The notes beneath the pieces are model-generated. The model saw only the letters and a program-made list of their open reading frames with translations. It was not told where the DNA came from and did not search any database. DNA of 56,208 nucleotides from the IMG/VR virus record IMGVR_UViG_3300043149_000013, positions 1 through 56,208 of that record; one strand, written 5' to 3'. The DNA is from a virus (taxonomy: Duplodnaviria > Caudoviricetes). Position 1 is the first letter of the stretch. Each line of letters opens with the position of its first letter. Below, piece by piece: positions 7,400 through 53,079 of the stretch. The position numbers were made by a program, and so were the translations under genes.

Positions 7400-7400
7400 T

Positions 7401-14240: not shown

Positions 14241-14731
14241 ACAACCCGCCCGTAGTACCCGCCACCATCTGCGTGGCCGCAAGCAAAGACGACTATACCC
14301 AATACCTGCACCGCAAGCGCTCCCTGATTCAGAAAGCCTGCAAGGCCGGAGCCGAACTGGCAGACGGCTTCCTGATGAAGTACATGGGACGGGATCACGT
14401 GCCAGTAGTGACGGCCACGGCCTTTGGCGCGGCCCTGTGTGAAGTGCTGGTGCTGAAGATTGACGCGGAACTGGCCGAACTCGCAAAACCGCAACCCGAG
14501 CGGCCGGGGATCGATCCGGAAGCCTTGATCCATGCGCAGACCGAAGTGCAGGCATGGCAGGAGCGGATTGACATGGTACGCGCCGCGGCGGCCGGGTTCC
14601 CACCCGAGTTGGGATTGAGTGCCATGTGGGAGGCGATTCTTATCCCCATGGCGGAAAAGGGACTGCGGGACGCCGAGCAGCAGCGGGATTGGATTCAGCA
14701 GGCTTTGGAGAATCAGCAGCCGGGCGAGTAG
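14237..14731 (+). CDS. Hypothetical helical protein
   Basis: ATGA coupling to the upstream gene. Confidence 0.55.
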   Translation: MNNPPVVPATICVAASKDDYTQYLHRKRSLIQKACKAGAELADGFLMKYMGRDHVPVVTATAFGAALCEVLVLKIDAELAELAKPQPERPGIDPEALIHAQTEVQAWQERIDMVRAAAAGFPPELGLSAMWEAILIPMAEKGLRDAEQQRDWIQQALENQQPGE

Positions 14732-16616: not shown

Positions 16617-17572
16617 CGGATTCCCCCACCCCGCAAGTTGCGCTCACCCGAGGTAACAGCGCGCCATATCCCCAGATTGTTCAACAGAAAATCATTCAGT
16701 TGGTCTTGGACTCCCTCAACTCTCCCCAATCCAAGAGAGCCTATTCCCGCGCTTTGCAGACCTTTCTCGCCTGGTTTCATGCCAACCAGCCAGCACAAGG
16801 CCTCACCCGAGCTTCGGTGCAATCCTACCGCTCCTATTTGCTGGAATCGGGCCTTTCTCCCTCCACCGTAAACTTGCGCTTGTGTGCCGTGCGCCGGCTG
16901 GTCGTGGAGGCAGTGGACAATGGGATGCTGGACCCAAACTTGGCAGCAGGAATCCTGCGGATCGCGGGAGCCAAGAAGCATGGGGTACGGACAGGGAATT
17001 GGTTAACGCTGCAGCAGGCCGAGCAGTTGTTGGGGACGCCGGACCCCGAGACACTCCGCGGTAAGCGGGACCGGGCGATACTTGCAGTGCTGATCGGGTG
17101 CGGGTTGCGACGGGAAGAGGCCGCGCGGCTGACCCTGGATCACATACAAATGCGGGAGGCCCGGTGGGTGATTGTGGACATCCAAGGAAAAGGCAACCGG
17201 GTACGGACCATTCCCATGCCGAGCTGGTCCAAGTTGGCAATCGATGAATGGGTAGCGGAAGGGGCCTGCGACTTTTCGTCCGGTAGCGTGCTGTTTCGAG
17301 CAGTGCAGGGGGACCGGATCTCAGGGGATTCGATGACGGCACAATCCATTTTTGATGTGGTGAAGAAGTATGCCGCACAAGCGGATCTGCCCGCGATCGC
17401 GCCGCACGACCTGCGGAGGACATTCGCGAAGTTGGCACACAAGGGGAAGGCCGCATTGGAACAGATCCAATTGAGTTTGGGGCATGCGTCGATTCAGACT
17501 ACCGAGCGGTATTTGGGAGTGTCACAGGATTTGACGGATGCCCCGTGCGATCACCTGGGGATCAAGATATGA
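16613..17572 (+). CDS. Tyrosine recombinase/integrase
   Basis: RDRAIL..GCGLRREE, GKG, HDLRRT, LGHASIQTTERY give the R-K-H-R-H-Y catalytic set. Confidence 0.96.
   Translation: MTDSPTPQVALTRGNSAPYPQIVQQKIIQLVLDSLNSPQSKRAYSRALQTFLAWFHANQPAQGLTRASVQSYRSYLLESGLSPSTVNLRLCAVRRLVVEAVDNGMLDPNLAAGILRIAGAKKHGVRTGNWLTLQQAEQLLGTPDPETLRGKRDRAILAVLIGCGLRREEAARLTLDHIQMREARWVIVDIQGKGNRVRTIPMPSWSKLAIDEWVAEGACDFSSGSVLFRAVQGDRISGDSMTAQSIFDVVKKYAAQADLPAIAPHDLRRTFAKLAHKGKAALEQIQLSLGHASIQTTERYLGVSQDLTDAPCDHLGIKI
16658..16684 (+). repeat. 27-bp inverted repeat, left copy
   Basis: AGCGCGCCATATCCCCAGATTGTTCAA is the exact reverse complement of 20594-20620. Confidence 0.9.
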
Positions 17573-17639: not shown

Positions 17640-17843
17640 TCATTGGATGTAACGCTCCGGATGCTCCGCGCGACTGCGGTCGAAGTAGCGGTTCTTGAAC
17701 GCGAGATCCCAATTCGCCATCCATCGCAGGAGTTTCCAGTACGGCATCCTCACGCGACACCAGAGCACTGCCCACTTGCCGTAGCGCCTCTCGTACTCCT
17801 GCCTGGGTATCAGTTCGTGGTTGCGTGCGTCGTAGAAGTTCAT
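17640..17843 (-). CDS. Hypothetical protein
   Basis: Coupled to the upstream minus-strand gene. Confidence 0.45.
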   Translation of the reverse strand: MNFYDARNHELIPRQEYERRYGKWAVLWCRVRMPYWKLLRWMANWDLAFKNRYFDRSRAEHPERYIQ

Positions 17844-18796
17844 CGGGGCATCTCATTCCACTCGCGGCCATCCAGCAAGCGGCCGGCGGATTTCTTGCCA
17901 ACCCGATAGAGATCCGGTTGATCGTCAACATGGCCATCGGTGCGGGCGAGGCTTTCGCGGCTAAAGATCCAGTGCCCATCGAATAGCGTGGCCGTCTGGA
18001 CAATGCCCTTTTGCCTATCAACGTTCTCACCCGGCGTCCACACTCCCCATTGCTTGAAGAAAAACGGGACGCCCGCCGCGATGCACTGATCCCGGATGGA
18101 CCGCACCCAAGCGGGACGCATCGGACGCGCGCCCTTCCCGCCCGACTCCCCGCCCACAATCACCCAGTGGATGCCCGTTAGATCCAGGGGTCCGAGGTCT
18201 TCCAGCAGCGGCTCCAAACTCAGGAAGCGAACCGGCGCAATCTCAAACGAAGCGGACATCGGCGGGCATTCGAAAGTTCGCGGGAGGTTCCGCAATAGAT
18301 CGATGCGGCCCAAGTGCGCCCGGTCCTCCACCGACACCCCGAACCAAACATGTGGCATCGGCCCGAACGTGGCAAAGATTCGCTTCATGATCGCGGGCAG
18401 CCGCGCGTCCGTCTCCCCATGCTTCGTCAAGACCTGGAACCGATGCCAGTTCGCGCGGTGCATCACCTTGAACACTTCAGCAATGTCCTCATCTGAAAGC
18501 GACGGGTGGAATAGATCGGAAAGCGAATTCACAAAGTAGGTGGTGGGTTTCTTGCGCCGCAACGGAATACACAGGCGCGCCGGCACCATCCGCACCTTTC
18601 CCGTCCAATTCACCTGCCCATTCTGGATTACCGTCAACCCCGCGTTCGCCGCTGCAATCTTTGGATTGGGATTGCTGGCCAGCCGATGCACCACTTTGAT
18701 GGCGTAGCAAAGTTTGCACCCGGCGCTGCACTTCGAACAGCCGAGAGTGGGGTTCCACGTGGCCTGCGTCCATTCAATCGGAGAATTGAGACTCAT
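17840..18796 (-). CDS. Phage Gp37/Gp68 family (DUF5131) protein
   Basis: IEWT.ATWNP..GC.KCS.GC..CYA, FVNSLSDLFH, FQVLTK, GVSVED, FLSLEPLL, WVIVGGESG, FFFKQWG. Confidence 0.92.
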   Translation of the reverse strand: MSLNSPIEWTQATWNPTLGCSKCSAGCKLCYAIKVVHRLASNPNPKIAAANAGLTVIQNGQVNWTGKVRMVPARLCIPLRRKKPTTYFVNSLSDLFHPSLSDEDIAEVFKVMHRANWHRFQVLTKHGETDARLPAIMKRIFATFGPMPHVWFGVSVEDRAHLGRIDLLRNLPRTFECPPMSASFEIAPVRFLSLEPLLEDLGPLDLTGIHWVIVGGESGGKGARPMRPAWVRSIRDQCIAAGVPFFFKQWGVWTPGENVDRQKGIVQTATLFDGHWIFSRESLARTDGHVDDQPDLYRVGKKSAGRLLDGREWNEMPR

Positions 18797-19053
18797 TCGT
18801 TTTGCGCCCTCGCGTACTGCCCTTCCAGCATTTCGCACGTGGTGCAGTCGTACCACGCGGTCAGATCCTTGGAGCCATGCACTTGCCAGCGGTGCAGCCG
18901 CATGGCTTCCACTGCATCCCACGCCGTCTCCCGCTCCGGCTCTTTCTTTTTCCGCGCTTCCCAACACGGGACCGAGCAGTAGCCGCGCGGCCAGAACATG
19001 TTCGAGTAGCGCCAGTAGTTGCGACCGCAAGAGCGGCAGACCGGGGTACTCAC
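18793..19053 (-). CDS. Zinc-finger protein
   Basis: CRSC..YCSVPC..C..C. Confidence 0.6.
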   Translation of the reverse strand: MSTPVCRSCGRNYWRYSNMFWPRGYCSVPCWEARKKKEPERETAWDAVEAMRLHRWQVHGSKDLTAWYDCTTCEMLEGQYARAQNE

Positions 19054-19307
19054 ATCACCGGCCCCTCAGGTTCCCTTCGCATGTATTCCGCTCTCCGCTT
19101 GCGCAAAGACAGGACTCCCAAGGCACGGGCAAAGAATCGGACATGGGGATTCCGCAAGGTTTCGCCGGCATCCAAGCGCCGCTGCGCTTCCAGCCGTTCG
19201 TATCCCAGGATTTCCTGCACGCCTTGAAAGTAGGCGTCCAGATTCGTGGCCTTGATCGGCCGCGCGTTGGCCGTGGTTGCTTGCACGAAGTATTCCATCA
19301 GCGGCAC
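19050..19307 (-). CDS. Hypothetical protein
   Basis: Part of a coupled minus-strand operon. Confidence 0.5.
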   Translation of the reverse strand: MPLMEYFVQATTANARPIKATNLDAYFQGVQEILGYERLEAQRRLDAGETLRNPHVRFFARALGVLSLRKRRAEYMRREPEGPVM

Positions 19308-19509
19308 CTCATTACCTCGGAGAGCAAGCGCTTGGCCTGATCCAAATAGCGGGCATGGACGTAGATCGCGATGGAGTCTTCACGGGTCAGGTACACGCGG
19401 GGTTCGATGCCCAATCCGTTCAGGTGGGTGCGGAGAATCGGCCAGCGGCCTGTGGGTTGGCGGTCGGGTTCCGGGAATTCCGCCAGTTTGCGGAGGAGTT
19501 TCGCGGCCA

Positions 19510-19758
19510 TCAGACACGCCCCACAAAGCGCACCGGGTACCAGTCGCACCGCTCATTGGCCGCTTCCGCGCCGACCATCACCGCGCAGTGCGAAAAGAAT
19601 CGGCAGTCCCCGCACGTCTTGCCCTCTGGCAAATTCATGGTGGCGAAGTAACCGTTTGAAAAGTGGCCCTGATCGGAAACAGGACACTTCAAGTCGGGGC
19701 CGTGGAGGTCTTTGGATCGGCCACAATCCACGCATCGGTCGGAGCGAGTGTTGGCCAT
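19510..19758 (-). CDS. Cys-rich small protein
   Basis: CVDC..MNLPEGKTCGDC..C..CDWYP. Confidence 0.6.
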   Translation of the reverse strand: MANTRSDRCVDCGRSKDLHGPDLKCPVSDQGHFSNGYFATMNLPEGKTCGDCRFFSHCAVMVGAEAANERCDWYPVRFVGRV

Positions 19759-19979
19759 TACAGGGACACCCCGCTTTCCGCCATCTGCCGGCGTTCTTTA
19801 CGGGAAGGCAGGTAGATGCCGTGCGCCTGAAGCATGATGCGCGTCAGCGGGACATCCAGACAGCGGATGCACTTCCCGTACTTGGTAGCCTTCGCCCCAC
19901 ATGAGCACTGCGCCTGGCGACTATCGACACGTGGGGACTTGCGCCGCCGATTCGCGGGACGCCCATTACTTTTGGGCAT
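19758..19979 (-). CDS. Small basic zinc-finger protein
   Basis: CSCG..KCIRC. Confidence 0.5.
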   Translation of the reverse strand: MPKSNGRPANRRRKSPRVDSRQAQCSCGAKATKYGKCIRCLDVPLTRIMLQAHGIYLPSRKERRQMAESGVSL

Positions 19980-20565
19980 TGCCGCGCTCCCACATGGTGC
20001 AGTATCCGTCCCGTGCCGCCTGAATCAGAATGGTGCAGACAGCAGCCTGCCGCGCCTGGTCATCCCACTGTTCTCCGCGAGCCTTCAATTCGTTGGAGAC
20101 TAAGGAAACGATTTCCCCGAATGCCACATTGAGCGGCACTTTCATGGGAGGGACGGGAGACGCCACGGGGCGAGCGGCGGGTTGCGGCGCTGGACCATAT
20201 GTGCCCGTGCCGCGCATCTGCGGTTGGGACTGGGACTGCTGCGAGGCCACCGGCTTGCGCGCCGCGGCGACCGACCGCTGCAACGTGGGCTCCATCTCTT
20301 CTTCCCGTGTGGTTACCGGGTTGACATCCCACCGGGTGTGATTGTTCGGCCCTACCCGCTTGGTAATCGAAAAGGGGATGCCGGGCTTGAATCCCGAGTT
20401 GCGGATGGAGGCGGCAACTGATTCCGACACGTACATTCGGCGTCCGTCCATCAGCGTGTAGAGGACCTGGGGTCCGTAGCGGCCGGTAACGTTCAATCCG
20501 TCCGCGTACTGCAAGCAAACTTCCTGGGGAATGTTCGGTTCAAAGTGGACTAGGTTGTTATTCAT
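19966..20565 (-). CDS. Hypothetical protein (OB-like N-terminus, possible ssDNA-binding or recombination protein)
   Basis: GAGG RBS; beta-rich N-domain, Pro/Gln linker, helical C-terminus. Confidence 0.55.
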   Translation of the reverse strand: MNNNLVHFEPNIPQEVCLQYADGLNVTGRYGPQVLYTLMDGRRMYVSESVAASIRNSGFKPGIPFSITKRVGPNNHTRWDVNPVTTREEEMEPTLQRSVAAARKPVASQQSQSQPQMRGTGTYGPAPQPAARPVASPVPPMKVPLNVAFGEIVSLVSNELKARGEQWDDQARQAAVCTILIQAARDGYCTMWERGNAQK

Positions 20566-20593
20566 CGCGTTTCTACCTCACAAACTTTATGGT

Positions 20594-20620
20594 TTGAACA
20601 ATCTGGGGATATGGCGCGCT
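20594..20620 (-). repeat. 27-bp inverted repeat, right copy
   Basis: Reverse complement of 16658-16684. Confidence 0.9.
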
Positions 20621-20833
20621 TTCACCACCAACGTACGCCAGTCGCCATCAGATTTTCATTTGCACAAGACGGCCATGCGGGACAGCACCTCCCGCGCCCT
20701 GTCGATGGCTTCAATCAGGCGCTCCCACATCAGCGCTTCCTGCTCATCCATACAGCAGTCGAAGCACATCCCGAGATGGAAGACTCGCACCCGGCGCGTA
20801 CACTTCGCACAGCGGGGCAGCCAGAACAGCAGA

Positions 20834-21112
20834 TCATTCATCCGCAAGCATTGCCTCTTTCAGCCGGCCCACCGCGCGTCCGGGGATTCCACAATCGCTT
20901 ACAGCCACCCCGGATTCAATCACTGTTACCGGGATGCTCTTCAAATTCCGCACCTCGTCAATATCCAGATCCCCGAATACCACCGCACCCGGCTCCGGCA
21001 TCACCAGCACCGCCAGTGAGAAATTGGAGCAACGCATCATGGCCGTTACCAAGTACGTGCCATACGCGGTTGGTTCGATCAGGATCGCGAGGCGCGGGGA
21101 TTTATCGGTCAT
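20834..21112 (-). CDS. Hypothetical protein
   Basis: Operon context. Confidence 0.45.
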   Translation of the reverse strand: MTDKSPRLAILIEPTAYGTYLVTAMMRCSNFSLAVLVMPEPGAVVFGDLDIDEVRNLKSIPVTVIESGVAVSDCGIPGRAVGRLKEAMLADE

Positions 21113-21812
21113 CGCGGGGTCCTGTTCTCATCTTGATCGATTGGGCTCGCCGGGCATGGTTCACGGGGTACAAATACGGCGATCCTGTACCCTCATCAAA
21201 CGCTTCCATGATCTCGGGAGCGAGTGTAAAATAGCAGTAGTTGGAGTTGCGAAGCGTTCCTAGCAGCATCCGCTGCGCATCGGCCTTCGAAATGCCCCGG
21301 CTTCGAAGATAAAATAGGGCGCTTTTGTCAATGTGCGCTTCGTCGCTCAGGTAGTGAATAAACAACCCGTCGTCGTCGCAGAATTCCAGGAACCCGCCGA
21401 TATCGATCTTTGTGAACTCGTGCGGCCATACATGCACCGCACCGTCCGGCGTATTGATGACAGCCTGATGCAAGTGGGTATACTGCCGATCCTTCCGCCG
21501 CTTGATTCCGAGATCATGCAAGAGTACGCGTGCGTTAGATGTATGCGGCTTTGCAAACCACATCGAAAGGCGGGGAACCGAAATTACCTGGGTAGTTTCG
21601 CCTACCATCCTGCCGACCGTCACTGTTGATAGCAGCAAGATCCAAGCGCCATCGGCTGGAATCTCTTTGCCGTATTCTTCTGGAAACGCATCCTCTGGGC
21701 ATTCGCGGCGGCGCACCATGTCGTCTATTGTTAACTGCTTGATGAGCTTCGCTTCTTCCGATTCGCTCCACGCGGGATTTGGAATCATGCGAGGTACCAC
21801 CTCAGTGTTCAC
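21102..21812 (-). CDS. Hypothetical protein with a SufB/SufD-like C-terminal motif
   Basis: IDKSALFYLRSRGISKADAQRMLLG resembles the SufBD C-terminal helices. Confidence 0.6.
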   Translation of the reverse strand: MNTEVVPRMIPNPAWSESEEAKLIKQLTIDDMVRRRECPEDAFPEEYGKEIPADGAWILLLSTVTVGRMVGETTQVISVPRLSMWFAKPHTSNARVLLHDLGIKRRKDRQYTHLHQAVINTPDGAVHVWPHEFTKIDIGGFLEFCDDDGLFIHYLSDEAHIDKSALFYLRSRGISKADAQRMLLGTLRNSNYCYFTLAPEIMEAFDEGTGSPYLYPVNHARRAQSIKMRTGPRDDR

Positions 21813-22260
21813 GCGGCATTCCTCCTCTGTCCAATTCCTACTTCGCCCTCTCGCGAAAGAGGCTTCCTCTCAGGGACAACAAACAATCGCGGTTTCCATG
21901 TGGTGCAGCACTCCCCCACATACAACTGCAACTCCCCATCCCAAGCGCGCTCCACCATGGACCCGCAAACTTGACACTTCTCTGCAATCTCAGGCCCCGC
22001 CATACGCAAACTCCCGCAGCTCCGCTTCTGCAGCGAACACCATCCGCCGCGCGTCCGCTTGCGCTTTCCGGTTCCTCGGATCATTCACCAGTTCCAAGGC
22101 ATTCTGGTAGGACCGTAGGATAGCCGTGCCCTTGTGCACGTTCCCACCATTCATGCGACCCACGGCGTAGTGCACCAGCAGCAAGTTTTCGCGCATCATC
22201 TCCAGCGTCTCTCAGGCTACGCACGAGCGGGCTTGCGCCCGCCGTGCTCCATTTTTTTTC

Positions 22261-22455
22261 TTAGAATGACCGCGACCACGACCACGACCACGACCGCGAC
22301 CGCGACCACGACCACGACCGCGACCGCGACCGCGACCACGACCCCGACCACGACCCCGACCGCGACCCCGACCGCGACCACGACCGCGACCACGACCGCG
22401 ACCCCGACCGCGACCACGACCACGACCGCGACCGCTCGACTACAGCGGCGTTCAT
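22261..22455 (-). CDS. Ser/Arg/Trp/Gly dipeptide-repeat protein (64 aa)
   Basis: MNAAVVERSRSWSWSRSGS...; ATGA-coupled to the upstream gene. Confidence 0.75.
   Translation of the reverse strand: MNAAVVERSRSWSWSRSGSRSWSRSWSRSGSRSGSWSGSWSRSRSRSWSWSRSRSWSWSWSRSF
22268..22433. repeat. Degenerate hexamer tandem repeat GACC[GAC]C
   Basis: About 27 units encoding the SR/SW/SG dipeptides. Confidence 0.9.
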
Positions 22456-22775
22456 TTCTGCGTCCTCGGAAGCGCGTGCTTCCACGGGAAAGCATCGGCT
22501 ATCGTGTCGGCATTGACGATTGCTTCCCCAACGGGTTCTACCTCATTCAGGCTTCCAGTTTTCAGTGCATCTGCGAATCTGCCACTGTCGGCGATCCATG
22601 CGGCATCTTCCAATACCAGGAAGCGCCCGATAATCTGCACCACACGTCCAGTGAGGTGGTAAGTGACCGTGCGCAAGAAATACGCGCGGCCAATCTCAAA
22701 CGGCTGCGTACGTGCCTCCGTCTGTTTGCCTGCTGGCTTCTGTTTGGTCGTCTTCTTCTTCGTTGTTTGTTTCAT
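22452..22775 (-). CDS. Small beta-barrel-like phage protein, partner of the SR-repeat gene
   Basis: IGRAYFLRTVTYHLTGRV..LEDAAWIADSGRF..EVEP. Confidence 0.75.
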   Translation of the reverse strand: MKQTTKKKTTKQKPAGKQTEARTQPFEIGRAYFLRTVTYHLTGRVVQIIGRFLVLEDAAWIADSGRFADALKTGSLNEVEPVGEAIVNADTIADAFPWKHALPRTQK

Positions 22776-22942
22776 CGTCCCAAATCCCTTTCGTGATCCC
22801 CATTCATTAAATCGCCGGCCAATTCGATGGACGGTGGCTCGTGGTACACCGGGTAATGCATCAGGGCATCGTCGCGTTGTTCCAGCTCCCGACGCCGCGC
22901 TTTCTGCGCGGGTGTTTCGTCAAAGTGATGCGAGGCTGCCAT

Positions 22943-23191
22943 TTACCACCATCCCCAAATCTTGCCAATCAAATAGACAGACAGGAAGAGAATTAGGTGA
23001 ACGACCATCTGCCCAAGAATCCACTTCGGAATAGAAGTGCGGTTGACATCAGAGCTACCGGTAACTTTCGCAGACTCTACCGTCTCTTCCGCCTCAATCC
23101 AGATAATCAGGGCGAAAAAGCAGATGACAAAGACCCAGAACAGAGTCCCTACTATCTGCTGGAATAGTACCGAAATCACCAGAGGCTTCAT
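22943..23191 (-). CDS. Small protein with two TM segments
   Basis: Two hydrophobic helices. Confidence 0.55.
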   Translation of the reverse strand: MKPLVISVLFQQIVGTLFWVFVICFFALIIWIEAEETVESAKVTGSSDVNRTSIPKWILGQMVVHLILFLSVYLIGKIWGWW

Positions 23192-23508
23192 GCTGCCCTC
23201 TTTCCCGTCTTGATCTCGTACGCCCGATTCAATCGCTCTACCAGTGCAGGCACATCCAATCCGTGCCGCTCGGCAAATCCCCGTGGGTCCTGATCGAACT
23301 CCCGATGTTCTTTGCGCGTCAGTGGAATGCACGACAGGTCCGAGGATTTAGAGCCAATTCCATGTGGCCCCGTATGACAGGCATCACACCCGTACCGCCC
23401 CGACACTGCCGAAGGGAGCGACCGCACGAAGGCTTTGTAGCGCTCATCCCGTACCGGCTTTTCTGCCACGTAGATGCGCTCACTGCGGATACCAAAGACA
23501 CGCTCCAT
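23188..23508 (-). CDS. DUF968-like (HNH-related) protein
   Basis: YKAFVRSLPSAVSG..DACH..GIGSK.SD..CIPLTR.EH. Confidence 0.7.
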   Translation of the reverse strand: MERVFGIRSERIYVAEKPVRDERYKAFVRSLPSAVSGRYGCDACHTGPHGIGSKSSDLSCIPLTRKEHREFDQDPRGFAERHGLDVPALVERLNRAYEIKTGKRAA

Positions 23509-23892
23509 TTACCAAACTCCATCATGAAAGTAGGGATGCTCACTGTTGGCATGTTGGGCGGTGACGGCATCCACTTCATCTTTGGGGTACGCCCGGTCTT
23601 CTTTGGGACGTTGAGTGCAGATAAAGGCCGCCTGCGATTCCGGAACCGCCCAGGCTTCCCGCAAATCAGTGGTGTACCCACTGCCACCTGCACGCCACCA
23701 AACCAAACAATCTCCGCAGAACCAGCGATTGCGGATATAGAACAGGCGTTCGCCCAACTCGCCTTCATGCCGGATTCGAACCGTCGCGCGTTCCGCTGGT
23801 GTCACGGCGATCCGATGGATATACTCTCGCGCCTTTTCCTCCGTCCAATCAGACGGGCAGGTCAGCACCACTTCCACTTTGAAGAGTTTCAT
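23509..23892 (-). CDS. Hypothetical phage protein
   Basis: GD..VWW..G.GYTTDL.EA pattern. Confidence 0.6.
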   Translation of the reverse strand: MKLFKVEVVLTCPSDWTEEKAREYIHRIAVTPAERATVRIRHEGELGERLFYIRNRWFCGDCLVWWRAGGSGYTTDLREAWAVPESQAAFICTQRPKEDRAYPKDEVDAVTAQHANSEHPYFHDGVW

Positions 23893-24611
23893 TCTTTCCC
23901 TCGAATCATCCGGCCCTCGTGCGCGCCTTCGAAATCCACTCGCGATCCTTGCCGGTACCCCTCTCGAAATGCCAACTCCGCTTTCTTCGCAGGCTTCACA
24001 CTGGGATCGTACGTCCCGCGAAATTCCAACTGTTCTACCATCCGCTTGGCAACCGCATTCCCGATCCGCACCAATTCCATGGATTGCGATGCCCGCATGG
24101 CTGCCCGCTTCCGCTCCATAGCCAGATCCCGAATCCGCATCGCCGCCCCATTCCGAAATGCCACGTACTCATCCTTATCGAATGGCTTGCAACCGAACAG
24201 GAATCCTTCGCCGATGTGCCGGGTTTTCTTCCAGCCTTCCAGCAGCGCTTCAATCGATTCCAGTAACCAGTGGAACGTGAGGCGCGCGGTTTCCACATTG
24301 GCTTCCAATCCAACAAATGCCACGCGCCATTTCGATCCCTTGCCTACCCAGAAGCACTCCACGTCAAAGAGATCACAAAGCGTTCGGGCTACCACGTTGT
24401 AATGTGGCTTGCGTTTTCCAATCGCATGGGACACTTGCTCGCATCCCGGCTCCGCTTCCAGTTGTACGGTGCCGATGTCCAGATTGTGCTTTTCCAGTAA
24501 CTCGCGCACCCGCGCCGCTGCATTCGCCGCTTCCGCTTCAGTCCCCGCGCGTTCGGCGAGCGCTTGCAGTTTGCGGATTTTCTCAATGACGGGATTGGGT
24601 ACGCTCGGCAC
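23889..24611 (-). CDS. DUF2786-domain protein, probably leaderless
   Basis: VIEKIRKLQALAE..EAEAANAAARVRELLEKHNL; GTG lies 7 nt from the -10 box. Confidence 0.8.
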   Translation of the reverse strand: MPSVPNPVIEKIRKLQALAERAGTEAEAANAAARVRELLEKHNLDIGTVQLEAEPGCEQVSHAIGKRKPHYNVVARTLCDLFDVECFWVGKGSKWRVAFVGLEANVETARLTFHWLLESIEALLEGWKKTRHIGEGFLFGCKPFDKDEYVAFRNGAAMRIRDLAMERKRAAMRASQSMELVRIGNAVAKRMVEQLEFRGTYDPSVKPAKKAELAFREGYRQGSRVDFEGAHEGRMIRGKE

Positions 24612-24617
24612 AAATTC

Positions 24618-24646
24618 ATCCTACTTCGGAGCGCTACGTATGTCAA
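24618..24646 (-). promoter_or_regulatory. Leftward sigma70-like promoter
   Basis: TTGACA-17 nt-TAGGAT on the minus strand. Confidence 0.75.
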
Positions 24647-24709
24647 CAGAAAATCTACCGGCGCTTTTCACCCGGCGTACCATACACTCGGTTAATTTTC
24701 AGTTGGTAC

Positions 24710-24738
24710 TTGACGGCGCGTATGCAATCGGCTACGAT
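24710..24738 (+). promoter_or_regulatory. Rightward sigma70-like promoter
   Basis: TTGACG-17 nt-TACGAT. Confidence 0.7.
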
Positions 24739-24752
24739 TCGTACTGCTAGGA

Positions 24753-24929
24753 ATGGTGACGCCACAGAAGGACCCAAACGCGGTTGCGCTCGGCAAGAAG
24801 GGCGGGACGGCTCGTGCTGTTTCCATGACGCCTGCGCAGCGATCGAAGGCCGCGCGACGGGCCATCAAGGAACGCTGGCGCAAATACTACGAGGCGAATC
24901 CAGACAAGAAGAAGGGCCGCAAGAGATGA
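24753..24929 (+). CDS. 58-aa basic KGG-motif protein (not in the ORF track)
   Basis: KDPNAVALGKKGGTARAVSMTPAQRSKAARRAIKERW. Confidence 0.8.
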   Translation: MVTPQKDPNAVALGKKGGTARAVSMTPAQRSKAARRAIKERWRKYYEANPDKKKGRKR

Positions 24930-25141
24930 AGGTCACCTACGAGTACGATGTGCGCCGCGCGACCTTTCCGAACGGGGATGACGCCGCCGTGATTGCGTGG
25001 CTGAACTCGTTCGGCACGGAGAGTTGGGGAGCCATCCAACTGGATCGATTCCCCTTGCGAAACAATCGCAGACGCCTGACCGGAGAAACCCTGTACCGCG
25101 CCACACTCGAACGCTGCATCTTTCACGAAGAGGCCGCATGA
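24926..25141 (+). CDS. Small hypothetical protein
   Basis: YEY..WLNSFGTESW; ATGA coupling. Confidence 0.55.
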   Translation: MKVTYEYDVRRATFPNGDDAAVIAWLNSFGTESWGAIQLDRFPLRNNRRRLTGETLYRATLERCIFHEEAA

Positions 25142-25449
25142 GCGACAGCGCACCAATTCTCGAGACCGACCAGCGCCCGCGCTTCCCCAAGTGGGGAGCC
25201 AAAGAACGGGACTTCTGGATGGATCTACTGGCCGACTACTCCGGGTGCTTCCTGGGACAGTTGGGAGACCAGCAAGAAAAAGGGGACACCACCTTAGTAC
25301 ATCTGCCCAAGGAAGACCAGGCCACCGAAGCGGTATTGCTGGCCGCGCGCCTGGCGGATGTCGCATTGCAAGAGATGGGCTACCGATTCTGGATTCAGGA
25401 GAATGGACCGAAGCGCCGGCCGCGCGTGGTCAAAAGGACGAGACGATGA
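25138..25449 (+). CDS. Hypothetical protein
   Basis: ATGA coupling. Confidence 0.55.
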   Translation: MSDSAPILETDQRPRFPKWGAKERDFWMDLLADYSGCFLGQLGDQQEKGDTTLVHLPKEDQATEAVLLAARLADVALQEMGYRFWIQENGPKRRPRVVKRTRR

Positions 25450-25901
25450 CCGAACAATCCCAAGCATCCTTCAATGGCTATGCCCGCGTCGAAGTCATGG
25501 GGCACCAAGTGCACATCGGGTATGTGAGGACCGAAGCCTACGGACAGGCCGTACTGTTCCGCATCGACACCCCAGAACTTCCAGAGCGCGAGTGGACTTT
25601 GGAAGCGCCGGAGTGGATCGGCAGCCAGTTAGCCCCGGTCGGCACCAAAGTGCAGCGTCCTGCGGTACCGGGTGGATCGGTACTGATTGGCGCGGGGTCC
25701 ATCTACCGCATCGTGCCGTGCTCGGAAGCCGCCGCGCTCAAAGCCATCGAGAACGGGACGCACCGGCCCTTGAAAGTGATTGACCTGCCACCGGGCCACG
25801 TACTGGCACCTCCCGAGTCGCGGGACTACACGTGCTGCAACGGCAATCCCGACGATGGTCACGACGACGATTGCGAGAACTCCCCGGAGGTTGAATTCTA
25901 A
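25446..25901 (+). CDS. Phage hypothetical protein
   Basis: ARVEVMGH..G.V..LFRID.P..GAGSIYRI.PCSE. Confidence 0.65.
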   Translation: MTEQSQASFNGYARVEVMGHQVHIGYVRTEAYGQAVLFRIDTPELPEREWTLEAPEWIGSQLAPVGTKVQRPAVPGGSVLIGAGSIYRIVPCSEAAALKAIENGTHRPLKVIDLPPGHVLAPPESRDYTCCNGNPDDGHDDDCENSPEVEF

Positions 25902-26332
25902 TGCCCGATACTGTTCAAGTAGCCCGTTCTTTCGAGTGTTCCTACGAAACCAAGGACCTCGCCACCTTCCAGCGGGAAGGCCACTTCGTACCGGCAATGC
26001 AGGACGAAGAGCAACGGCGCCGCCCGTGGGAAGGGGACACGGTGCATATTCTGCAACTGGACTGGCACCGCACCCAGGTTTTACGCGTTCTGGCCGACAG
26101 CCGAGAGGAAGTGGTACTCCTCATGGGCAACCGGATTCACGAATACTTCTTTGGCATGTGGGTATCGGCGCAGACCACCACCCGGTTGATTGAAGTGACC
26201 GCCCTGATGCAGGAGGAGCGGAACAATGTAATGGAGGCGTTGCGCGGAGCCGGGTTGCCGTTGTCGATTTCCGATCCCGTGAAGGGGATTGAGTGGCTGA
26301 AGGCGCGCGCGGGCGAGAAGTCGGAGGGGTGA
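25901..26332 (+). CDS. Hypothetical protein
   Basis: TAATG coupling. Confidence 0.5.
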   Translation: MPDTVQVARSFECSYETKDLATFQREGHFVPAMQDEEQRRRPWEGDTVHILQLDWHRTQVLRVLADSREEVVLLMGNRIHEYFFGMWVSAQTTTRLIEVTALMQEERNNVMEALRGAGLPLSISDPVKGIEWLKARAGEKSEG

Positions 26333-26847
26333 TGCTGGACCGGGTGGATAGCTGGATGCTGGATCGATGCCAGATAATTACTGACCGGGTGCAATTGTGG
26401 ATTGGGCCGGACGCGCTGCAGCAGGCAAATCTGATGTGCATCGTGTCGGCGATTGGGATTCTGTGGCTGATCGTAGCCGACTTGCGGTCTCACTGGGACG
26501 CCAGCACTTGGTTCAAAAGTCTGATCCTCCTGTGCCGAGTTTACGAGTTGTTTTTCGGAAACCCCACGGACAATGACATCCGCCGCGACGCCCACATGGG
26601 GATGCGCAACCGTAGACGGATAGAGGGCATCAAGGCCAGAAAGTTTTCGCTCTGCGCCGCGCTGATTCTGCCTGTTGCCTGCAGTTTGGGATGGGCTTAC
26701 CCGGTATGGTTCTTTGGCGATATCGCCAATCAGTGGATGGGGACCTGTGACCTGCGCCCGCCGCAGTCTTCGAAGGTTCGCGAGTGGGTCAAGAGCCTAT
26801 CCATCCTGCCGACTCGCACGCCCGCTCCGGCGCAGGAGGCCGCGTGA
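26329..26847 (+). CDS. Membrane protein
   Basis: GGAGG RBS; several hydrophobic segments. Confidence 0.55.
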   Translation: MMLDRVDSWMLDRCQIITDRVQLWIGPDALQQANLMCIVSAIGILWLIVADLRSHWDASTWFKSLILLCRVYELFFGNPTDNDIRRDAHMGMRNRRRIEGIKARKFSLCAALILPVACSLGWAYPVWFFGDIANQWMGTCDLRPPQSSKVREWVKSLSILPTRTPAPAQEAA

Positions 26848-27076
26848 ATCCCGATCTCATCCAGCGCGCCCTGATGCACTACGCGGAACATTTGGAGACT
26901 GCGAAAGATGACGGATTGGACCTCATTGAGCAGCACGCCCAATGCCTAGAAGCAATCGCATGTTTTCTCTGGCCGGAAGAGGGAGCGCGCCGATTTCGAG
27001 GTACTCCAGGTGACGCGGCGTACGCCATCATGGAGGAGTTGAAGCGCCGGGGACTCGGGAATGGGAAGGTGGGCGA

Positions 27077-27322
27077 ATGAACCGATGGGGCATTGCCGGA
27101 CTCGCGATTATCTTGGTGCCGCTGTTGTCACTCGCGGCCTTCACTCTGCACCAGCAGTGGCATTTTCTGACCCATACGTCCGCTACGGTATGGCTACAAG
27201 CGGGTGGTATCGCAGGAGCCGTGGTTCTGGTGTTCGTCGCGTGGATGCGCTTGGCAGTCTGGTGCCTGAATCGCGCGGACCAGCGTAGCCGCGAACAATG
27301 GAAACGGAGGGCCGGCGAATGA
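27077..27322 (+). CDS. Small protein with two TM segments
   Basis: Two hydrophobic helices and a basic tail. Confidence 0.55.
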   Translation: MNRWGIAGLAIILVPLLSLAAFTLHQQWHFLTHTSATVWLQAGGIAGAVVLVFVAWMRLAVWCLNRADQRSREQWKRRAGE

Positions 27323-27640
27323 CCGTCAGCAAAGAGCAGTTGCAGCAGATCCGCGAGGCGCTGTTGGAAGCCGTGCAGGAATGCACCGAGCACAACAACG
27401 AGTACCGATACATCACAGCGCAAACCGTCATTGACCGGTGGTCAGCGCTAGCACGGGAGTTGCCCCAATGAAACTGGAAGAGTTGAAAGAGCACGTGGAC
27501 AAGTTGCAACAGTTGCTTGCCGACCCGCACCCCGGCCTGTTCACCTGGATTGAATGGGTCGCTCACCACTGCAAGGCCATCGCCGAATTCTATTACGGGG
27601 ACGCCTACGAGATCGCAAAGAAGACGGGAGGGTTGCCCCA

Positions 27641-27865
27641 ATGAATCTTCCCTTGCCCGCCTTCGACACCGAAGAATCGACCGCCACCTTTGCCATTACG
27701 ATGGACTACTTGAGCGACCTGTTTACAGCATCGGGAAAAGAGACCTTCAGTAAATTGGAAGTGCTGCACATCTTGAATCTAGTGCGCGGGGATTCGGACT
27801 TGGTAGACCAGGACCGTCTGATGCAATTCGAAGCCTCGGTAGCGCATATTGGACCGGAGGAATAA
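27641..27865 (+). CDS. Hypothetical protein
   Basis: GGAGG RBS; ATGA coupling. Confidence 0.5.
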   Translation: MNLPLPAFDTEESTATFAITMDYLSDLFTASGKETFSKLEVLHILNLVRGDSDLVDQDRLMQFEASVAHIGPEE

Positions 27866-27872
27866 AAGAGCA

Positions 27873-28655
27873 ATGAAACGCAAAACGTTGGTGGCAGTAT
27901 TGAGTATCAGCGCGATCGGTTGCGGGTATGTTTCTCCCGACGCCGGTCATGAGGCGGTGTTGGTAGAAAAACCGTGGTTCTTTGGCCATGGCGGGGTGGA
28001 CCCGACGCCGGTCACCACCGGATCACAGATCGTCGCTTCCAGTACCGAGGCGATCATGGTCAACACACAGCCGATTCGATTCGATGAGGCGTTCGAAGAC
28101 ATGATGTCGAAAGACAACGTGCCGATGAGTTTTCACGCCGTGCCGCGAATGCAGATCACCAACACCGTGGATTTGATTCGCCGGTTTGGGATTGAGTGGT
28201 ACAAGAACAATGTGCAGCGCCAGTTCCAGAACTTCACCCGGAATGCTGCCAAAAGTTATTCAATGACGGACCTCGCAATCAATCAGGCAAGCGTGAAGGA
28301 TTTGGAATCGGACGTTCAGAAAGAACTCTCGCAATACCTTCTCAATCAGAGCATACCGGTAAAGTGCCTGGAAGTGACCGTAGGGCGCGTCAGCCCGCCC
28401 ACCCAGGTAATCGACGCCATCAAGGGAACCGCCGAGCAACAGCAGCGTATCAAGACGGAGGCGCAAAAGAAACTGGCCGAGGACGCTCGCCGAGCCGCCG
28501 AAGAAAGCCGCGCTATTGCCGATAAAGCCTATCAGGAAAAAATGGGCCTCACCTCCCAACAGTTCGTGGAGTTGGAAAAAATCAAGATGTGCGCGAGCAA
28601 ATCCAACTGCTCCGTATTCCTCGGATCGCAAGCGGTTCCGGTGGTGGGAAAGTAG
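27873..28655 (+). CDS. SPFH/band-7 domain lipoprotein
   Basis: Lipobox-like IGC; SPDAGHEAVLVEKPWFFGHGGVD; C-terminal coiled coil. Confidence 0.85.
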   Translation: MKRKTLVAVLSISAIGCGYVSPDAGHEAVLVEKPWFFGHGGVDPTPVTTGSQIVASSTEAIMVNTQPIRFDEAFEDMMSKDNVPMSFHAVPRMQITNTVDLIRRFGIEWYKNNVQRQFQNFTRNAAKSYSMTDLAINQASVKDLESDVQKELSQYLLNQSIPVKCLEVTVGRVSPPTQVIDAIKGTAEQQQRIKTEAQKKLAEDARRAAEESRAIADKAYQEKMGLTSQQFVELEKIKMCASKSNCSVFLGSQAVPVVGK

Positions 28656-28662
28656 GCTCTCA

Positions 28663-29037
28663 ATGGATTTGCACTTCGCCGGCAAGAACCCCGGCCGCCC
28701 CGATGAAGTCTGGATCGACCATGAAACCGGCACCATCCACATCCCCGGCGTTGCCCCACAACCCCTGGTGAATGAGACCAGCGGTAAGGAATACGAGCTC
28801 CTGAAAGAGCGGGACGCCGAGCGGCAGAGGATGATGCAGCACTGGAAACGCCAGATGCTCTCCCGCTTCCAATGCTTGCAGTGCAAGAAGACCTTCTGGG
28901 GAAAGTGGTGCCGGGTGAAGTGGCGCAACCTGGATGGGGTGCAAACGGAAACTCTGGTGTGTCCGGATCAGACATGTGACGGGCCTACCGTGATGGTGCA
29001 GGATGCGCTGAATTTGCGCGAGGTGCCGAAGCCGTGA
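28663..29037 (+). CDS. Zinc-ribbon protein
   Basis: CLQC...CPDQTC. Confidence 0.55.
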   Translation: MDLHFAGKNPGRPDEVWIDHETGTIHIPGVAPQPLVNETSGKEYELLKERDAERQRMMQHWKRQMLSRFQCLQCKKTFWGKWCRVKWRNLDGVQTETLVCPDQTCDGPTVMVQDALNLREVPKP

Positions 29038-29324
29038 ACACCTGTCCGAAGTGCCAGCAGAGCACCATGCCACCCCGGAGACCGGGCAGCAGCGCTACCG
29101 CGCGACAGTGCCAGAATCCGGAATGCCAATACGTGGAGGAATTCGAAAGTGAATCGGCTTCCTGAAACCGTTCTGCATCAACTGCGGCTGATGCGGAAAC
29201 GCGCGCCTAGCACTTGGACATGCACCAGCACCTATCATGATTTGGTCAGTCCATTTATCAATGGGAAAGACCCGCTGACGGTAGAGGTGATTCAAGAAAT
29301 CATCCGTCAGATAAAAGGAACCCA

Positions 29325-29843
29325 GTGAACCGCCGCGCTTTTATCGGAGCCTTGTTCGGGGCAGCCGCAGCAGCCGCCATTCCGGAAGATCCACAGCAGG
29401 CAATCGCACCACCCGCGAAAACGCCGGAGCAATGGTGGCAGCACTACACCTATTGCTTTGCCACCGAGATGCGCGGCGACAAGACCTACACTTTGGAACT
29501 GGCGGTAGACCGGGACTTTTGGATGTCGCACATCCAGTGGACCATGCCGGAAGGAACGCGCGTAGCCGTGCGGGAGAGCGGCAAGTTACTTTTTGAAATG
29601 GCAATGCCCGGAATGTTCACGGGACCCTTCAGCAGTTTCCCTGTCATGCCTGACCTTTTCGTTGCGGCCGGAACTTCCCTATCGGTGGACTTCCGCAACC
29701 CGGAGGGGCAGTTCCTGATGTCCCCGGCGATGCTGGCAATGACGGGACGGCGCGCGATGACCGAAGCAGAAATCGCAAGCTGGAATACCAAAGAGAAAGA
29801 TGACGAGGACGATGGTTTTTACGAGGACGAAGAAGAGTTATGA
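29325..29843 (+). CDS. Protein with a twin-arginine-like leader, paralogous to capsid-like 54884-55315
   Basis: MNRRAFIGALFGAAAAAA; DRDFWMSHI..FPVMPDLFVAAGTSLSVDFRN..MTGRR aligns with DADFAWRAI..WPVFPEILIPAGGRIGIDIQD..CRGVKR. Confidence 0.65.
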   Translation: MNRRAFIGALFGAAAAAAIPEDPQQAIAPPAKTPEQWWQHYTYCFATEMRGDKTYTLELAVDRDFWMSHIQWTMPEGTRVAVRESGKLLFEMAMPGMFTGPFSSFPVMPDLFVAAGTSLSVDFRNPEGQFLMSPAMLAMTGRRAMTEAEIASWNTKEKDDEDDGFYEDEEEL

Positions 29844-30121
29844 CCGACCAGCAGATTGATTCCCTGATAGACGCGCTCCGCCCCGAGTTGCGCACCGCGA
29901 TCAAAGGACTACTCGCCGGAGAACTAGTGCACGCCTTCAACATCGGCGCCCACAACTCCCAGACCGGGCAGCCGGGTACGATGGTCTGCTACATCGCCCA
30001 TGAGCCACTGGCGATTCTGATTGAAGGGGTATTGAGCGGGTTCGGGCAGATGCAGCAGCGCTCCATGGAGTTGCAGCAGCAGGCGCAACAGCCGGCACCA
30101 CGCATCATCCAACCGAGTTGA
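29840..30121 (+). CDS. Hypothetical protein
   Basis: ATGA coupling. Confidence 0.55.
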   Translation: MTDQQIDSLIDALRPELRTAIKGLLAGELVHAFNIGAHNSQTGQPGTMVCYIAHEPLAILIEGVLSGFGQMQQRSMELQQQAQQPAPRIIQPS

Positions 30122-30336
30122 AACGCCATGCTGCTACCTGACGCAAGAGACCCCAACACACCGCATGATCCAGGTGGCCCGAAGTGCCGATATGAATGTG
30201 GATCGCCTGTAACCCATTTCTGCGAAGAATGCGCCGGTGGGGCATCGGGACTCTCGGGATACTTCTGCGAGTTCCACGCGCGACGGCATGACCTGAAAGA
30301 CAACGGCGGGACCATACTCGCCGCTCCGATCCGACC

Positions 30337-30657
30337 ATGAAGGGCACCACCTACGGCGGTATCGTACACTTCCCCCGGCATCCGGAAGCGGACATGCACG
30401 GTCTGATGCGCGCGGCCATGCGAACGACCAGCCTATTGCAGTTGGAGACCGCCTGCCAGATGTGGGATATCCCCTTCCGCTTGTCCTTGATGGGCATGGG
30501 GGTGTGGTCGGTATCGAAGTCGATTGCCGAGATTCACGCAACGGAGCGGAACTACGGGTTCCTGCTGGTGTGCCCTTTGTCTCAGGCGTATTTGGAAGCG
30601 GAGTACTATCAGGCGATTCCCAGGAATCTACTGGCACGCAGGAAGGAGCGGAAGTGA
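30337..30657 (+). CDS. Hypothetical protein
   Basis: ATGA coupling. Confidence 0.45.
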   Translation: MKGTTYGGIVHFPRHPEADMHGLMRAAMRTTSLLQLETACQMWDIPFRLSLMGMGVWSVSKSIAEIHATERNYGFLLVCPLSQAYLEAEYYQAIPRNLLARRKERK

Positions 30658-31167
30658 TTCAAGTACGCAGCGTTTGGGCAAGTTCGTGGATGTGCTGGCG
30701 TTGTGGCGGGTCTCATGGCGGGGATGATGAAATGTTCCAGGTGACGATAACGGATGCGGAAGGGAACTGGAGGACTTCCGCGTGTATGTGCCGAGGTTGT
30801 GCGGGAGGCAGAGACCCTAACGGTGGTTTCAGTTGGGCGCTTCCAATCATCGGAGCAATCTGCAATGGCAGGCAGGTTTGGTGGAAACTGCGTCTCCGTC
30901 TTGCGTGGCGCATCTTGCGGGGTACGCTCCAATGACCATCCTTGAAGTTCACGTCTCCGACACGCCCGAAGGATTCCGCGCGGCCCTCGGTCCCACACTG
31001 ATGCGCTGGAAAGAAGTATGGACGGATGGAACGGTGGAGCCGCATGTGATGTCCATCAGCACGGAGGGGATTGTCTGCACGGCTCCGACGCGCGAGCAGG
31101 CGGTACGGGAATTGGCGCAGGTGTTTCAAGATCTGCTGTTCGAACCGATCCGACAGGCAACACGAAA

Positions 31168-32040
31168 ATGAAGCGCATGATGCACGTCCAGAACTTTAGC
31201 GGCGGGTTGTGCTCGTTCTGGAGTGCGGTACGGGTGGCCGAGAAGCATGGGACCTCGGACCTCACGCTGCTATTTGCCGATACGCTCATCGAAGATGAGG
31301 AACTTTATGAATTCAACGAGCGCGCCGCGCAATATCTGGGAGTTCCGATCACGCGGATTTCTCTTGGCGTGACCCCATGGGAGTTGTTCCGAAGCCAGGG
31401 TTTAATCGGCAACTCGCGCTTTCCCATCTGCTCGATTTATTTGAAGCGCGAACCGCTGGACGAATGGCACGCGGCCCATTGTGTAAGCGCCACAGAGGAA
31501 CAGCAGGAATCCCTATTCGATATCAATGACAAGCGCCCGGCAACAATCTACGTCGGATTCGACTGGACAGAAGAAAACCGCCTGAAAGATCTTCGCGCGG
31601 AGCGTCCAGACTGGCGGATTGAAGCGCCGATGTGTGATTCTCCCCTCTGGGACAAATGCCAGATGGAACGGGAGGCACGCGCCATTGGAATGCCGATTCC
31701 CCGGCTGTACGGATTGGGATTTCCGCACAACAACTGCGGCGGGCGATGCGTACGGGCTGGCATCTCGCATTGGGTTCACCTGTATCACGTACTGCCGAGT
31801 CGCTACCTGGAATGGGAAGTAGAAGAGCAATCAACCAAGGTGGAACTGGAAAGGCGCGGTATCAAGCCGTTTTCTATCCTGAAAGACCGGCGCGGTGGCT
31901 TCTACAAACCCCTCTGGCTGGCAGACCTTCGAATCCGCATCCAATCCGGAGAGAAGTTTGACAAATACGATTGGGGCGGCTGCGGATGTGGCGGCGCGAC
32001 CCAGGAACAAAACGCCATAGTCTCAATTACAGAGCAATGA
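31168..32040 (+). CDS. PAPS reductase / adenine nucleotide alpha-hydrolase family protein
   Basis: NFSGGLCS PP-loop, FADTL.ED, CS..LK, GFPHNNCGGRCVRAG, WGGCGC. Confidence 0.85.
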   Translation: MKRMMHVQNFSGGLCSFWSAVRVAEKHGTSDLTLLFADTLIEDEELYEFNERAAQYLGVPITRISLGVTPWELFRSQGLIGNSRFPICSIYLKREPLDEWHAAHCVSATEEQQESLFDINDKRPATIYVGFDWTEENRLKDLRAERPDWRIEAPMCDSPLWDKCQMEREARAIGMPIPRLYGLGFPHNNCGGRCVRAGISHWVHLYHVLPSRYLEWEVEEQSTKVELERRGIKPFSILKDRRGGFYKPLWLADLRIRIQSGEKFDKYDWGGCGCGGATQEQNAIVSITEQ

Positions 32041-50533: not shown

Positions 50534-50536
50534 TCT

Positions 50537-50854: not shown

Positions 50855-50856
50855 AT

Positions 50857-51585: not shown

Positions 51586-51638
51586 AGGGCAGGGGTTCGC
51601 TCGCGCTTCCGGCCGGTCGCGCAAGTGATAGCAGCAAA

Positions 51639-51739: not shown

Positions 51740-51746
51740 GGAGGAG

Positions 51747-53069: not shown

Positions 53070-53079
53070 AGGAGAGCCG

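Follow-up and report, generated by a model that had tools for sequence, protein, structure and literature searches.

We analysed a stretch of viral DNA of 56,208 bases, hereafter the window, that makes up a complete virus record in IMG/VR (IMGVR_UViG_3300043149_000013). Within it, the open reading frame (ORF) at positions 29325-29843 encodes a small protein in which a predicted leader of the twin-arginine translocation (Tat) type is joined to a distant but real homologue of a protein from the virus's own conserved structural module. Genes are named below by their first coordinate, and the two proteins are accordingly called 29325 and 54884. Our best reading, which we hold only tentatively, is that 29325 is an accessory protein which is exported by Tat and works at the cell envelope as a mimic of a virion protein. 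The Tat-type leader and the accessory phage envelope protein are both known kinds of element; unusual here is that the cargo comes from a structural domain of the virus itself.

Organization of the 29325 gene

ORF 29325-29843 is a real gene. Its composition lies within the range of the genome (GC content 0.578, GC content at third codon positions 0.676, codon score 0.219 per codon), and its start position is confirmed by relatives, which begin with M/V-N-R-R at the same place. Its GTG and the stop of the upstream ORF share the letters GTGA, with AAGGAA 4 nt before the start, and at the other end its own stop and the ATG of the next ORF share ATGA; these overlaps couple the gene translationally to both neighbouring ORFs. 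It belongs to a block of plus-strand genes that does not include the structural module. An AlphaFold2 (AF2) model of the protein has an overall predicted local distance difference test score (pLDDT) of 79.8, with 10-residue block means of 77-96 over residues 41-150 and 8 of these 11 blocks at 90 or above. The gene can be divided as follows.

29325-29843, plus strand: whole gene, 172 aa with a GTG start, comprising leader, linker, beta-sandwich and acidic tail
29325-29378, plus strand: twin-arginine-type leader by pattern, residues 1-18 (MNRRAFIGALFGAAAAAA), with RR at 3-4 and then 16 uncharged Ala/Gly-rich residues
29379-29432, plus strand: Pro/Glu-rich variable linker, residues 19-36, pLDDT 50-76, its length varying among relatives
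29433-29759, plus strand: predicted eight-strand beta-sandwich (jelly-roll-like), residues 37-145, a distant homologue of 54884
29760-29840, plus strand: C-terminal helix (residues 147-162 of the model) and acidic tail with aromatic residues (DDEDDGFYEDEEEL)

The modelled strands span residues 38-49, 54-60, 65-73, 79-84, 87-93, 103-113, 118-124 and 133-144. An acidic tail had already been pointed out in an earlier note on this DNA, and it is indeed a family trait, as the net charge over the last 25 residues is -10 in 29325 and -6 to -12 in 12 aligned relatives, among which the tail consensus is DAEFxDE.

The 29325 family and its leader

A full HMMER search of 1.84 billion representative proteins with the single 29325 sequence returned 15 proteins at E <= 0.001, namely 29325 itself, 13 relatives and a protein of 1156 aa (P0134), with no member of the 54884 family among them. 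The relatives are 142-186 aa long, share 30-42% identity (E 1e-19 to 3e-4) and are matched from the first residue over most of the query, and a profile search added three further family members. P0134 matches residues 87-134 through six tandem repeats (E 1.5e-5) and is taken as spurious, its repeats having amplified a weak resemblance near a P…P…AGG-like motif. One relative, P0132, has its C-terminal half swapped for unrelated sequence. Both were left out of the family alignment (A2), which holds 13 sequences. Two clusters of the family are found on virus-sized contigs (56.2 and 56.7 kb), and the others with recorded contigs are on fragments of 0.7-32 kb.

Other searches with 29325 returned little. 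The single sequence found only itself among the 144 candidates of a word-seeded search, tblastn against GenBank phages gave one chance match at E 2, and the best score in the ESM Atlas (0.77) is a lead at most. A degenerate DNA pattern for the leader matched one stretch in IMG/VR, with no ORF of at least 80 aa on the matching strand, and this too is taken as a chance match. The protein has no match in PHROGs, Pfam or NCBIfam, and hence none to any family described there for superinfection exclusion (Sie), Llp or Cor.

The leader is the best-conserved and most constrained part of the family: mean pairwise identity is 62% for the leader, 23% for the linker, 34% for the domain and 43% for the acidic tail. 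Tat signal peptides carry an S/T-R-R-x-F-L-K-like motif with consecutive arginines near the N-terminus. The N-terminus of 29325 is a MNRRAFIGALFG(A)n leader, and a [N/D/S]-R-R-x-F-[I/L] motif with its RR at residues 3-8 is present in every one of the 13 aligned sequences, none of which deviates from R3, R4, F6 or G12 of the leader. R-R-x-F-[IL] is likewise found in 17 of the 17 family sequences seen, with no Arg-to-Lys change. Because neither arginine is ever replaced by lysine, the established consensus argues for the Tat rather than the Sec pathway.

The residues that follow are also in keeping with a signal peptide. An Ala/Gly-rich, uncharged run of 12-28 residues (mean hydropathy 1.8-2.4) comes after the RR in 11 of the 13 aligned members, and most members have Ala-x-Ala-like sites after the leader and then a Pro/Glu-rich linker. 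Such a short and weakly hydrophobic stretch after the RR is more readily understood as a signal peptide than as a membrane anchor, and with no 19-residue window above a mean hydropathy of 1.6 a transmembrane anchor is unlikely. A lipoprotein signal was ruled out because no Cys follows the leader. Tat-signal models are the sole named families that touch the N-terminus of 29325. The pattern thus supports a twin-arginine-type leader. It resembles known Tat signal peptides (TIGR01409 and PF10518, including the uncleaved Rieske-type signal anchors) in its RR motif, its short Ala/Gly-rich and weakly hydrophobic stretch and its Ala-x-Ala-like sites. However, it does not have the Lys at consensus position +5, it scores under both curated cut-offs, and it is carried by a viral protein related to a virion-module protein.

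Homology of 29325 to a protein of the structural module

The two proteins of the module that are most relevant to 29325 are encoded near the end of the window.

54884-55315, plus strand: beta-sandwich protein with one domain, belonging to the conserved structural module; no other protein of the genome is closer to the 29325 domain
55319-56208, plus strand: tandem double of the 54884 domain, a 303-aa ORF that crosses the terminal repeat and ends at window position 149 on the circle

The earlier note had aligned the 29325 domain with 54884 by means of short motif pairs, had suggested a profile comparison as a check, and had named the lack of a shared fold as the outcome that would speak against it. 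The quoted pairs are present and in register (HYTYCF with DFTYPY, DRDFWMSHI with DADFAWRAI, FPVMPDLFVAAGTSLSVDF with WPVFPEILIPAGGRIGIDI, and MTGRR with CRGVKR), and BLASTP aligns the two proteins with 24 identities in 123 positions (20%, E 5e-4). When the two family alignments are compared by hhalign, the probability is 90.9% (E 1.2e-6, score 45.0, 84 columns), whereas the controls stay at 0.2-0.3% with reversed profiles and reach at most 2.1% (score 19.7) over 30 column shuffles. The hidden Markov model (HMM) of the 29325 family, made from A2, finds 54884 at E 8.9e-6 among the 88 window proteins, followed by 55319 at 0.49 and the next protein at 0.8. In six-frame searches the same model detects only the 29325 and 54884 ORFs in the window genome, and only the 54884 orthologue (E 1.4e-6) in the related genome G001.

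Structure prediction points the same way, and the adverse outcome named in the earlier note did not arise. The AF2 model of 54884 (pLDDT 76.8), like that of 29325, is an eight-strand beta-sandwich, the strand order is the same in both, and six strands of the models coincide along the hhalign alignment. The two proteins also have in common the motifs D-x-D-F, P-x-x-P and (P)AG-x-x-[LI]-x-[VI]-D. We conclude that the 29325 domain and 54884 are distant homologues, that neither half of 55319 is as close to the domain, and that 29325 is likely a paralogue that arose by duplication within the lineage. Against these likenesses stand an identity of only about 20%, the additional leader, linker and acidic tail of 29325, and its position outside the conserved module as an optional gene; the distance to 54884 is 25.0 kb on the 56.1-kb circle, in agreement with the separation of about 25 kb given in the earlier note. 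The 29325 domain also evolves faster, with 30-42% identity in its family versus 60-80% among the listed relatives of 54884 (119 besides the window's own).

Foldseek searches of the Protein Data Bank (PDB) with both models yield generic sandwiches only, with template modelling (TM) scores of 0.3-0.5. The two lists overlap in Ena2A (9i0y), Ena3A (8pdz), a GOLD domain (5gu5), VP2 of infectious bursal disease virus (IBDV) and the tail fibre of phage 7-7-1 (9rkv). Known capsid proteins do appear in the lists (IBDV VP2 and the coats of nanoviruses and tymoviruses, E 1e-3 to 2e-3, TM about 0.3), and they stand amid carbohydrate-binding module (CBM), GOLD and Ena domains. Prediction of a complex between 54884 and residues 34-150 of 29325 scored 0.30 and 0.20, against a mark of 0.32, values that speak neither for nor against pairing.

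The structural module

A terminal repeat of 127 bp at the window ends indicates a circular genome of about 56.1 kb. The block that covers 49262-56208 and continues at 122-8357 is syntenic in five other loci, three of them from IMG/VR (L002, L007 and L008) and two from contigs of metagenome-assembled genomes (MAGs), namely a 358-kb Bryobacteraceae contig (L016) and a 36.8-kb Lysinibacter contig (L017). The gene order 53080, 54099, 54884, 55319, 122 is kept across this block. At E <= 0.01, 54884 has 231 relatives among 252 candidates, many of them on contigs of 45-68 kb. Comparison of 55319 with the 54884 family by hhalign gives a probability of 95.7% (E 9e-9), and the HMM matches two domains within it.

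The capsid label that the earlier note had attached to 54884 gained no support from the searches. The protein has no capsid-family match by Pfam, PHROGs or PDB sequence (where the best value for the 54884 family is at least E 0.44), and Foldseek returns only generic jelly-roll matches from the PDB and an equally generic list from BFVD. Context suggests that 54099, 54884 and 55319 may form a capsid.

Several further observations concern the module and its genes. The module is found in MAG contigs of three different phyla, those of L016, L017 and a Methylophilaceae contig (L015), which leaves the host ambiguous. In L016 it is close to a contig end (positions 799-21236), and this long Bryobacteraceae contig, together with an integrase gene in the window, suggests a temperate life style. 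The 314-aa product of 53080-54024 (plus strand) is extremely Lys/Arg-rich over its first ~170 residues and Gly/Ala-rich and hydrophobic in its C-terminal part; 53080 is a syntenic core gene directly before 54099-54884-55319 in L002, L007, L008, L016 and L017, and its product could bind DNA and membrane in the particle. One member of the 54884 family, P0013, has an internal duplication of ~28 residues that covers its first strands.

An optional gene

The 29325 family was not found in the close relatives of the virus that were searched. Searches with the A2 profile, in which the profile found its targets as a positive control, detected no member in five related IMG/VR records (at E <= 1; four with terminal repeats and three rated 100% complete), in the three MAGs that carry the structural module, in 401 sampled genomes from the phylum of the Bryobacteraceae MAG, or in G001 (88% complete). 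The gene lies outside the module 53080-54099-54884-55319-122 and is missing from related records and MAGs in which that module is present. It is an optional, accessory gene that the virus group can dispense with.

A second genomic setting for the family is provided by L005, a 20.5-kb portion of a 56.7-kb contig that has in common with the window a helicase, a methylase, the 598-aa protein 41465 and five smaller genes, at identities of 30-68%. The immediate neighbours of the family gene there differ from those in the window, as it adjoins genes for a T5orf172 protein, a helicase and a methylase. There is no relative of 54884 in the 20.5 kb of this contig that were examined.

The earlier note had gone further and presented 29325 as the second of two leader-bearing copies, one for each of two capsid genes, and hence as part of a repeated strategy. 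This part of the proposal is not borne out in the window or in the nearest relatives. Six-frame scans of the window reveal no other ORF with an N-terminal RRxF-type leader, and no other leader-bearing window protein is similar to 54099, 54884 or 55319. Among related records, none of five has a member of the family, and none of a partly different set of five has an N-terminal leader that fits R-R-x-F-I-x-x-L; the sole pattern match there lies inside an ORF of 606 aa and is consequently not a leader.

A proposed function at the cell envelope

In the reading of 29325 as an exported mimic, the protein consists of three modules. These are a Tat-type signal peptide, a very diverged jelly-roll-like sandwich whose counterpart is free in 54884 and doubled in 55319, and a helix followed by an acidic, aromatic-containing tail. 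The Tat machinery of the host would export the already folded sandwich across the inner membrane, where it would either be released by cleavage at an Ala-x-Ala site or be kept tethered by the leader. At the envelope the look-alike might then occupy or neutralise a partner of the virion protein, which could be a receptor or the basic delivery proteins of an entering virion, and contacts with basic partners such as 53080 might fall to the acidic tail. The outcome could be that superinfecting relatives are excluded or that progeny are spared dead-end adsorption. These steps at the envelope are the weakest of the scheme.

Phages are known to encode envelope proteins that block superinfection or the use of receptors, such as Llp of T5, Cor of phi80 and N15, Imm and Sp of T4, and gp15 of HK97. 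By analogy, 29325 would resemble these proteins in being small, optional, exported and encoded outside the structural module, a likeness that extends to the proposed mode of action only. To our knowledge, their signals are of the Sec or lipoprotein type and none of them copies a virion protein of its own phage, whereas 29325 has a Tat-type leader and its cargo is a copy of a domain from the virus's own virion module. The Ccm protein of cos-type phage-inducible chromosomal islands is a capsid-protein homologue that mobile elements use for interference, and it shares with 29325 the retention of a diverged virion-protein copy as an accessory gene. The cargo of 29325 is a whole folded domain rather than a short fragment, and the gene belongs to a virus without recognisable tailed-phage head genes. 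For the action of an export-tagged virion look-alike, a proposed counterpart is the receptor interference exerted by endogenous retroviral env proteins. The open full-text literature searched, which included the phage passages of a 2026 review of Tat (PMC13673990) and in which subscription journals are largely outside coverage, yielded no account of a phage virion protein copied behind a Tat leader.

A broader proposal can be built on this, although we regard it as rather doubtful. Bacterial viruses, here a non-tailed-looking virus of 56 kb, might keep export-tagged look-alikes of their own virion proteins, with a Tat leader that sends a folded shell or spike domain to the envelope to interfere with receptor use or with entering relatives. 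These look-alikes would constitute one widespread, hitherto undescribed accessory class of phage proteins, and 29325 would be its whole-domain form.

A number of points weigh against an exported mimic of a virion protein. With respect to export, TIGR01409 matches only one of the 13 aligned members (12.4 bits versus a cut-off of 16.7, E 0.16), and PF10518 matches two of the 13 below its curated cut-off (best E 0.053). The Tat-like leader claimed in the earlier note therefore stands as an invariant RR-x-F-[IL] in the best-conserved segment, and not as a hit above the thresholds of the curated Tat models. Two members have an acidic residue inside the stretch after the RR (Asp at +1 in P0128 and Glu at +4 in P0131), and the family has no strictly conserved cleavage site. 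A Tat system in the host is an assumption, and a periplasmic job for so strongly acidic a tail is not obvious. With respect to mimicry, the match is modest when approached from the other side: the 54884-family HMM (A1) ranks 55319 first among the 88 window proteins (2e-9) and gives 29325 an E value of only 0.0027, with the next protein at 1.5, and 29325 alone matches the A1 profile weakly (11% probability, E 0.0028). Finally, the virion role of 54884 is itself putative, suggested only by its place in the conserved syntenic module.

Alternative explanations

The explanation that best survives beside the exported mimic, and which we nevertheless consider unlikely, is that 29325 assists in the cytoplasm or at the membrane face in the assembly of a membrane-containing virion. 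The leader would serve as a tether, the sandwich would dock on the shell, and the tail would chaperone 53080 in the manner of nucleoplasmin with histones. The conserved acidic tail would suit such a role, as would a module that is rich in proteins with a single hydrophobic segment and in which the Lys/Arg-rich 53080 comes just upstream of 54099, 54884 and 55319. Nucleoplasmin (NPM1) likewise has a small sandwich of eight strands with an acidic tail behind it, and nucleoplasmin cores (1xe0, 1xb9 and 4n8m) occur in the Foldseek list of 29325 at E 2-3e-3. However, these matches are weak (TM 0.25-0.30) and stand amid generic sandwiches, and nucleoplasmins are without an export leader. The hydrophobic stretch of 29325 is too short and weak for a stable anchor, and a simple tether has no need of an invariant RR-x-F-[IL]. 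Five of five related records have 53080-54099-54884-55319 but not 29325, which excludes a general role in assembly.

It is less probable again that 29325 is a generic exported beta-sandwich ‘moron’, for instance a carbohydrate-binding or adhesin-like module acquired from a host or another element, whose likeness to 54884 reflects a common jelly-roll fold and not descent. The two family profiles find each other specifically where the controls fail, which is difficult to reconcile with a merely shared fold, and the 401 genomes from the phylum of the Bryobacteraceae MAG and the three MAGs contain no cellular relatives from which such a gene might have come. The domain has no Pfam, NCBIfam or PDB-sequence family, and the long contigs of the family are virus-sized (56.2 and 56.7 kb) with replication genes in common. 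Nevertheless, Foldseek does match the model to BcsB, CBM6/35/61, GOLD and Ena domains (TM 0.3-0.4), the single sequence did not reach the 54884 family in the HMMER search, and the gene has no conserved neighbours.

A minor component of the virion or its envelope, for example a host-range spike, is a third possibility and an improbable one. Here Tat would deliver the sandwich to the outer face of the cytoplasmic membrane, from which it would enter the particle. Homology to a structural-module protein, the signal-like or anchor-like segments of several proteins in that module, and a strain-specific presence that would fit a host-range module all lend this idea some appeal. However, 25 kb separate the gene from the structural module, non-structural genes share its block, its copy in L005 adjoins the T5orf172 protein, helicase and methylase genes, and its domain evolves fast while leader and tail are kept.

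The last alternative, an escort that pairs in the cytoplasm with leaderless 54884 or 55319 and carries its partner across the membrane as a Tat ‘hitch-hiker’, is very improbable: Tat does export folded complexes (hydrogenase and DmsAB), and the occurrence of the 54884 family as free and fused doubles suggests that its domains pair, but there is no evidence of binding between 29325 and 54884 or 55319, the gene is absent from most relatives, and no need for a periplasmic virion protein is known.

Other features of the window

A crude gene call places 87 ORFs over 86% of the window sequence, and no tRNA genes were found. Family scans covered 35 proteins with Pfam and 19 with PHROGs, and they identified a tyrosine integrase (16589-17572), two DNA methylases, a DUF5131 protein, a helicase-like protein, an SPFH/Band-7 protein and an Ig-like domain. 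The scanned proteins included neither a terminase nor a portal, and no packaging ATPase or capsid protein of the HK97 or double jelly-roll type. The sole Walker-A-like motif of the window is in 2375-3517, and many of the small window proteins have a single hydrophobic segment.

The two ORFs that overlap 29325 are the following.

29149-29328, plus strand: upstream ORF of 59 aa with the GTGA overlap, no known family, low coding score
29840-30121, plus strand: downstream ORF of 93 aa with the ATGA overlap, no known family, not kept beside the relative in L005

The plus-strand block that contains these genes (24710-32040) diverges from a minus-strand block (17640-24611) across a gap of ~100 bp (24611-24740) with promoter-like hexamers on both strands; promoter-like sites in this region are no commoner than in shuffled sequences (3 versus 3.3). 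The label of early region that the earlier note had given to the location of 29325 is at most putative. Two genes upstream of 29325, positions 27849-28655 (plus strand) encode the SPFH/Band-7 protein (PF01145, E 6e-16), which has a lipoprotein-like leader (…LSISAIGC) and is a second envelope-directed accessory gene product of the same block.

Three observations concern repeated or shared domains elsewhere in the window. A C-terminal domain of ~180 aa is common to 691-1341 and 7401-8357 (plus strand, 34% identity), one of which also has a He_PIG Ig domain, and L002 has three copies of it (12377-12892, 14141-14665 and 16907-17278); this domain may be an exchangeable receptor-binding module. In the structural block, 2375-3517 and 5346-6353 (plus strand) have a common signal-like N-terminus of 52 residues (42% identity), and the remainder of the two proteins is unrelated. 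The window protein 12613-13380 is represented in the Bryobacteraceae contig L016 by two tandem copies (5513-6943, 47% and 39% identity).

Implications for the virus group

Should the leader prove inactive in export, the finding would shrink to a diverged accessory paralogue. With its invariant RR and a small folded cargo that has no cofactor, 29325 is a clean test system for Tat-dependent export. If export does take place, 29325 would be a rare example of a virus that uses the folded-protein export of its host for a copy of its own structural domain. If the proposed function is also true, 29325 would be a concrete candidate for competitor exclusion or receptor management in a poorly understood group of soil viruses, and that widespread group is a large one, as is evident from the 231 relatives of 54884, many of them on contigs of 45-68 kb.

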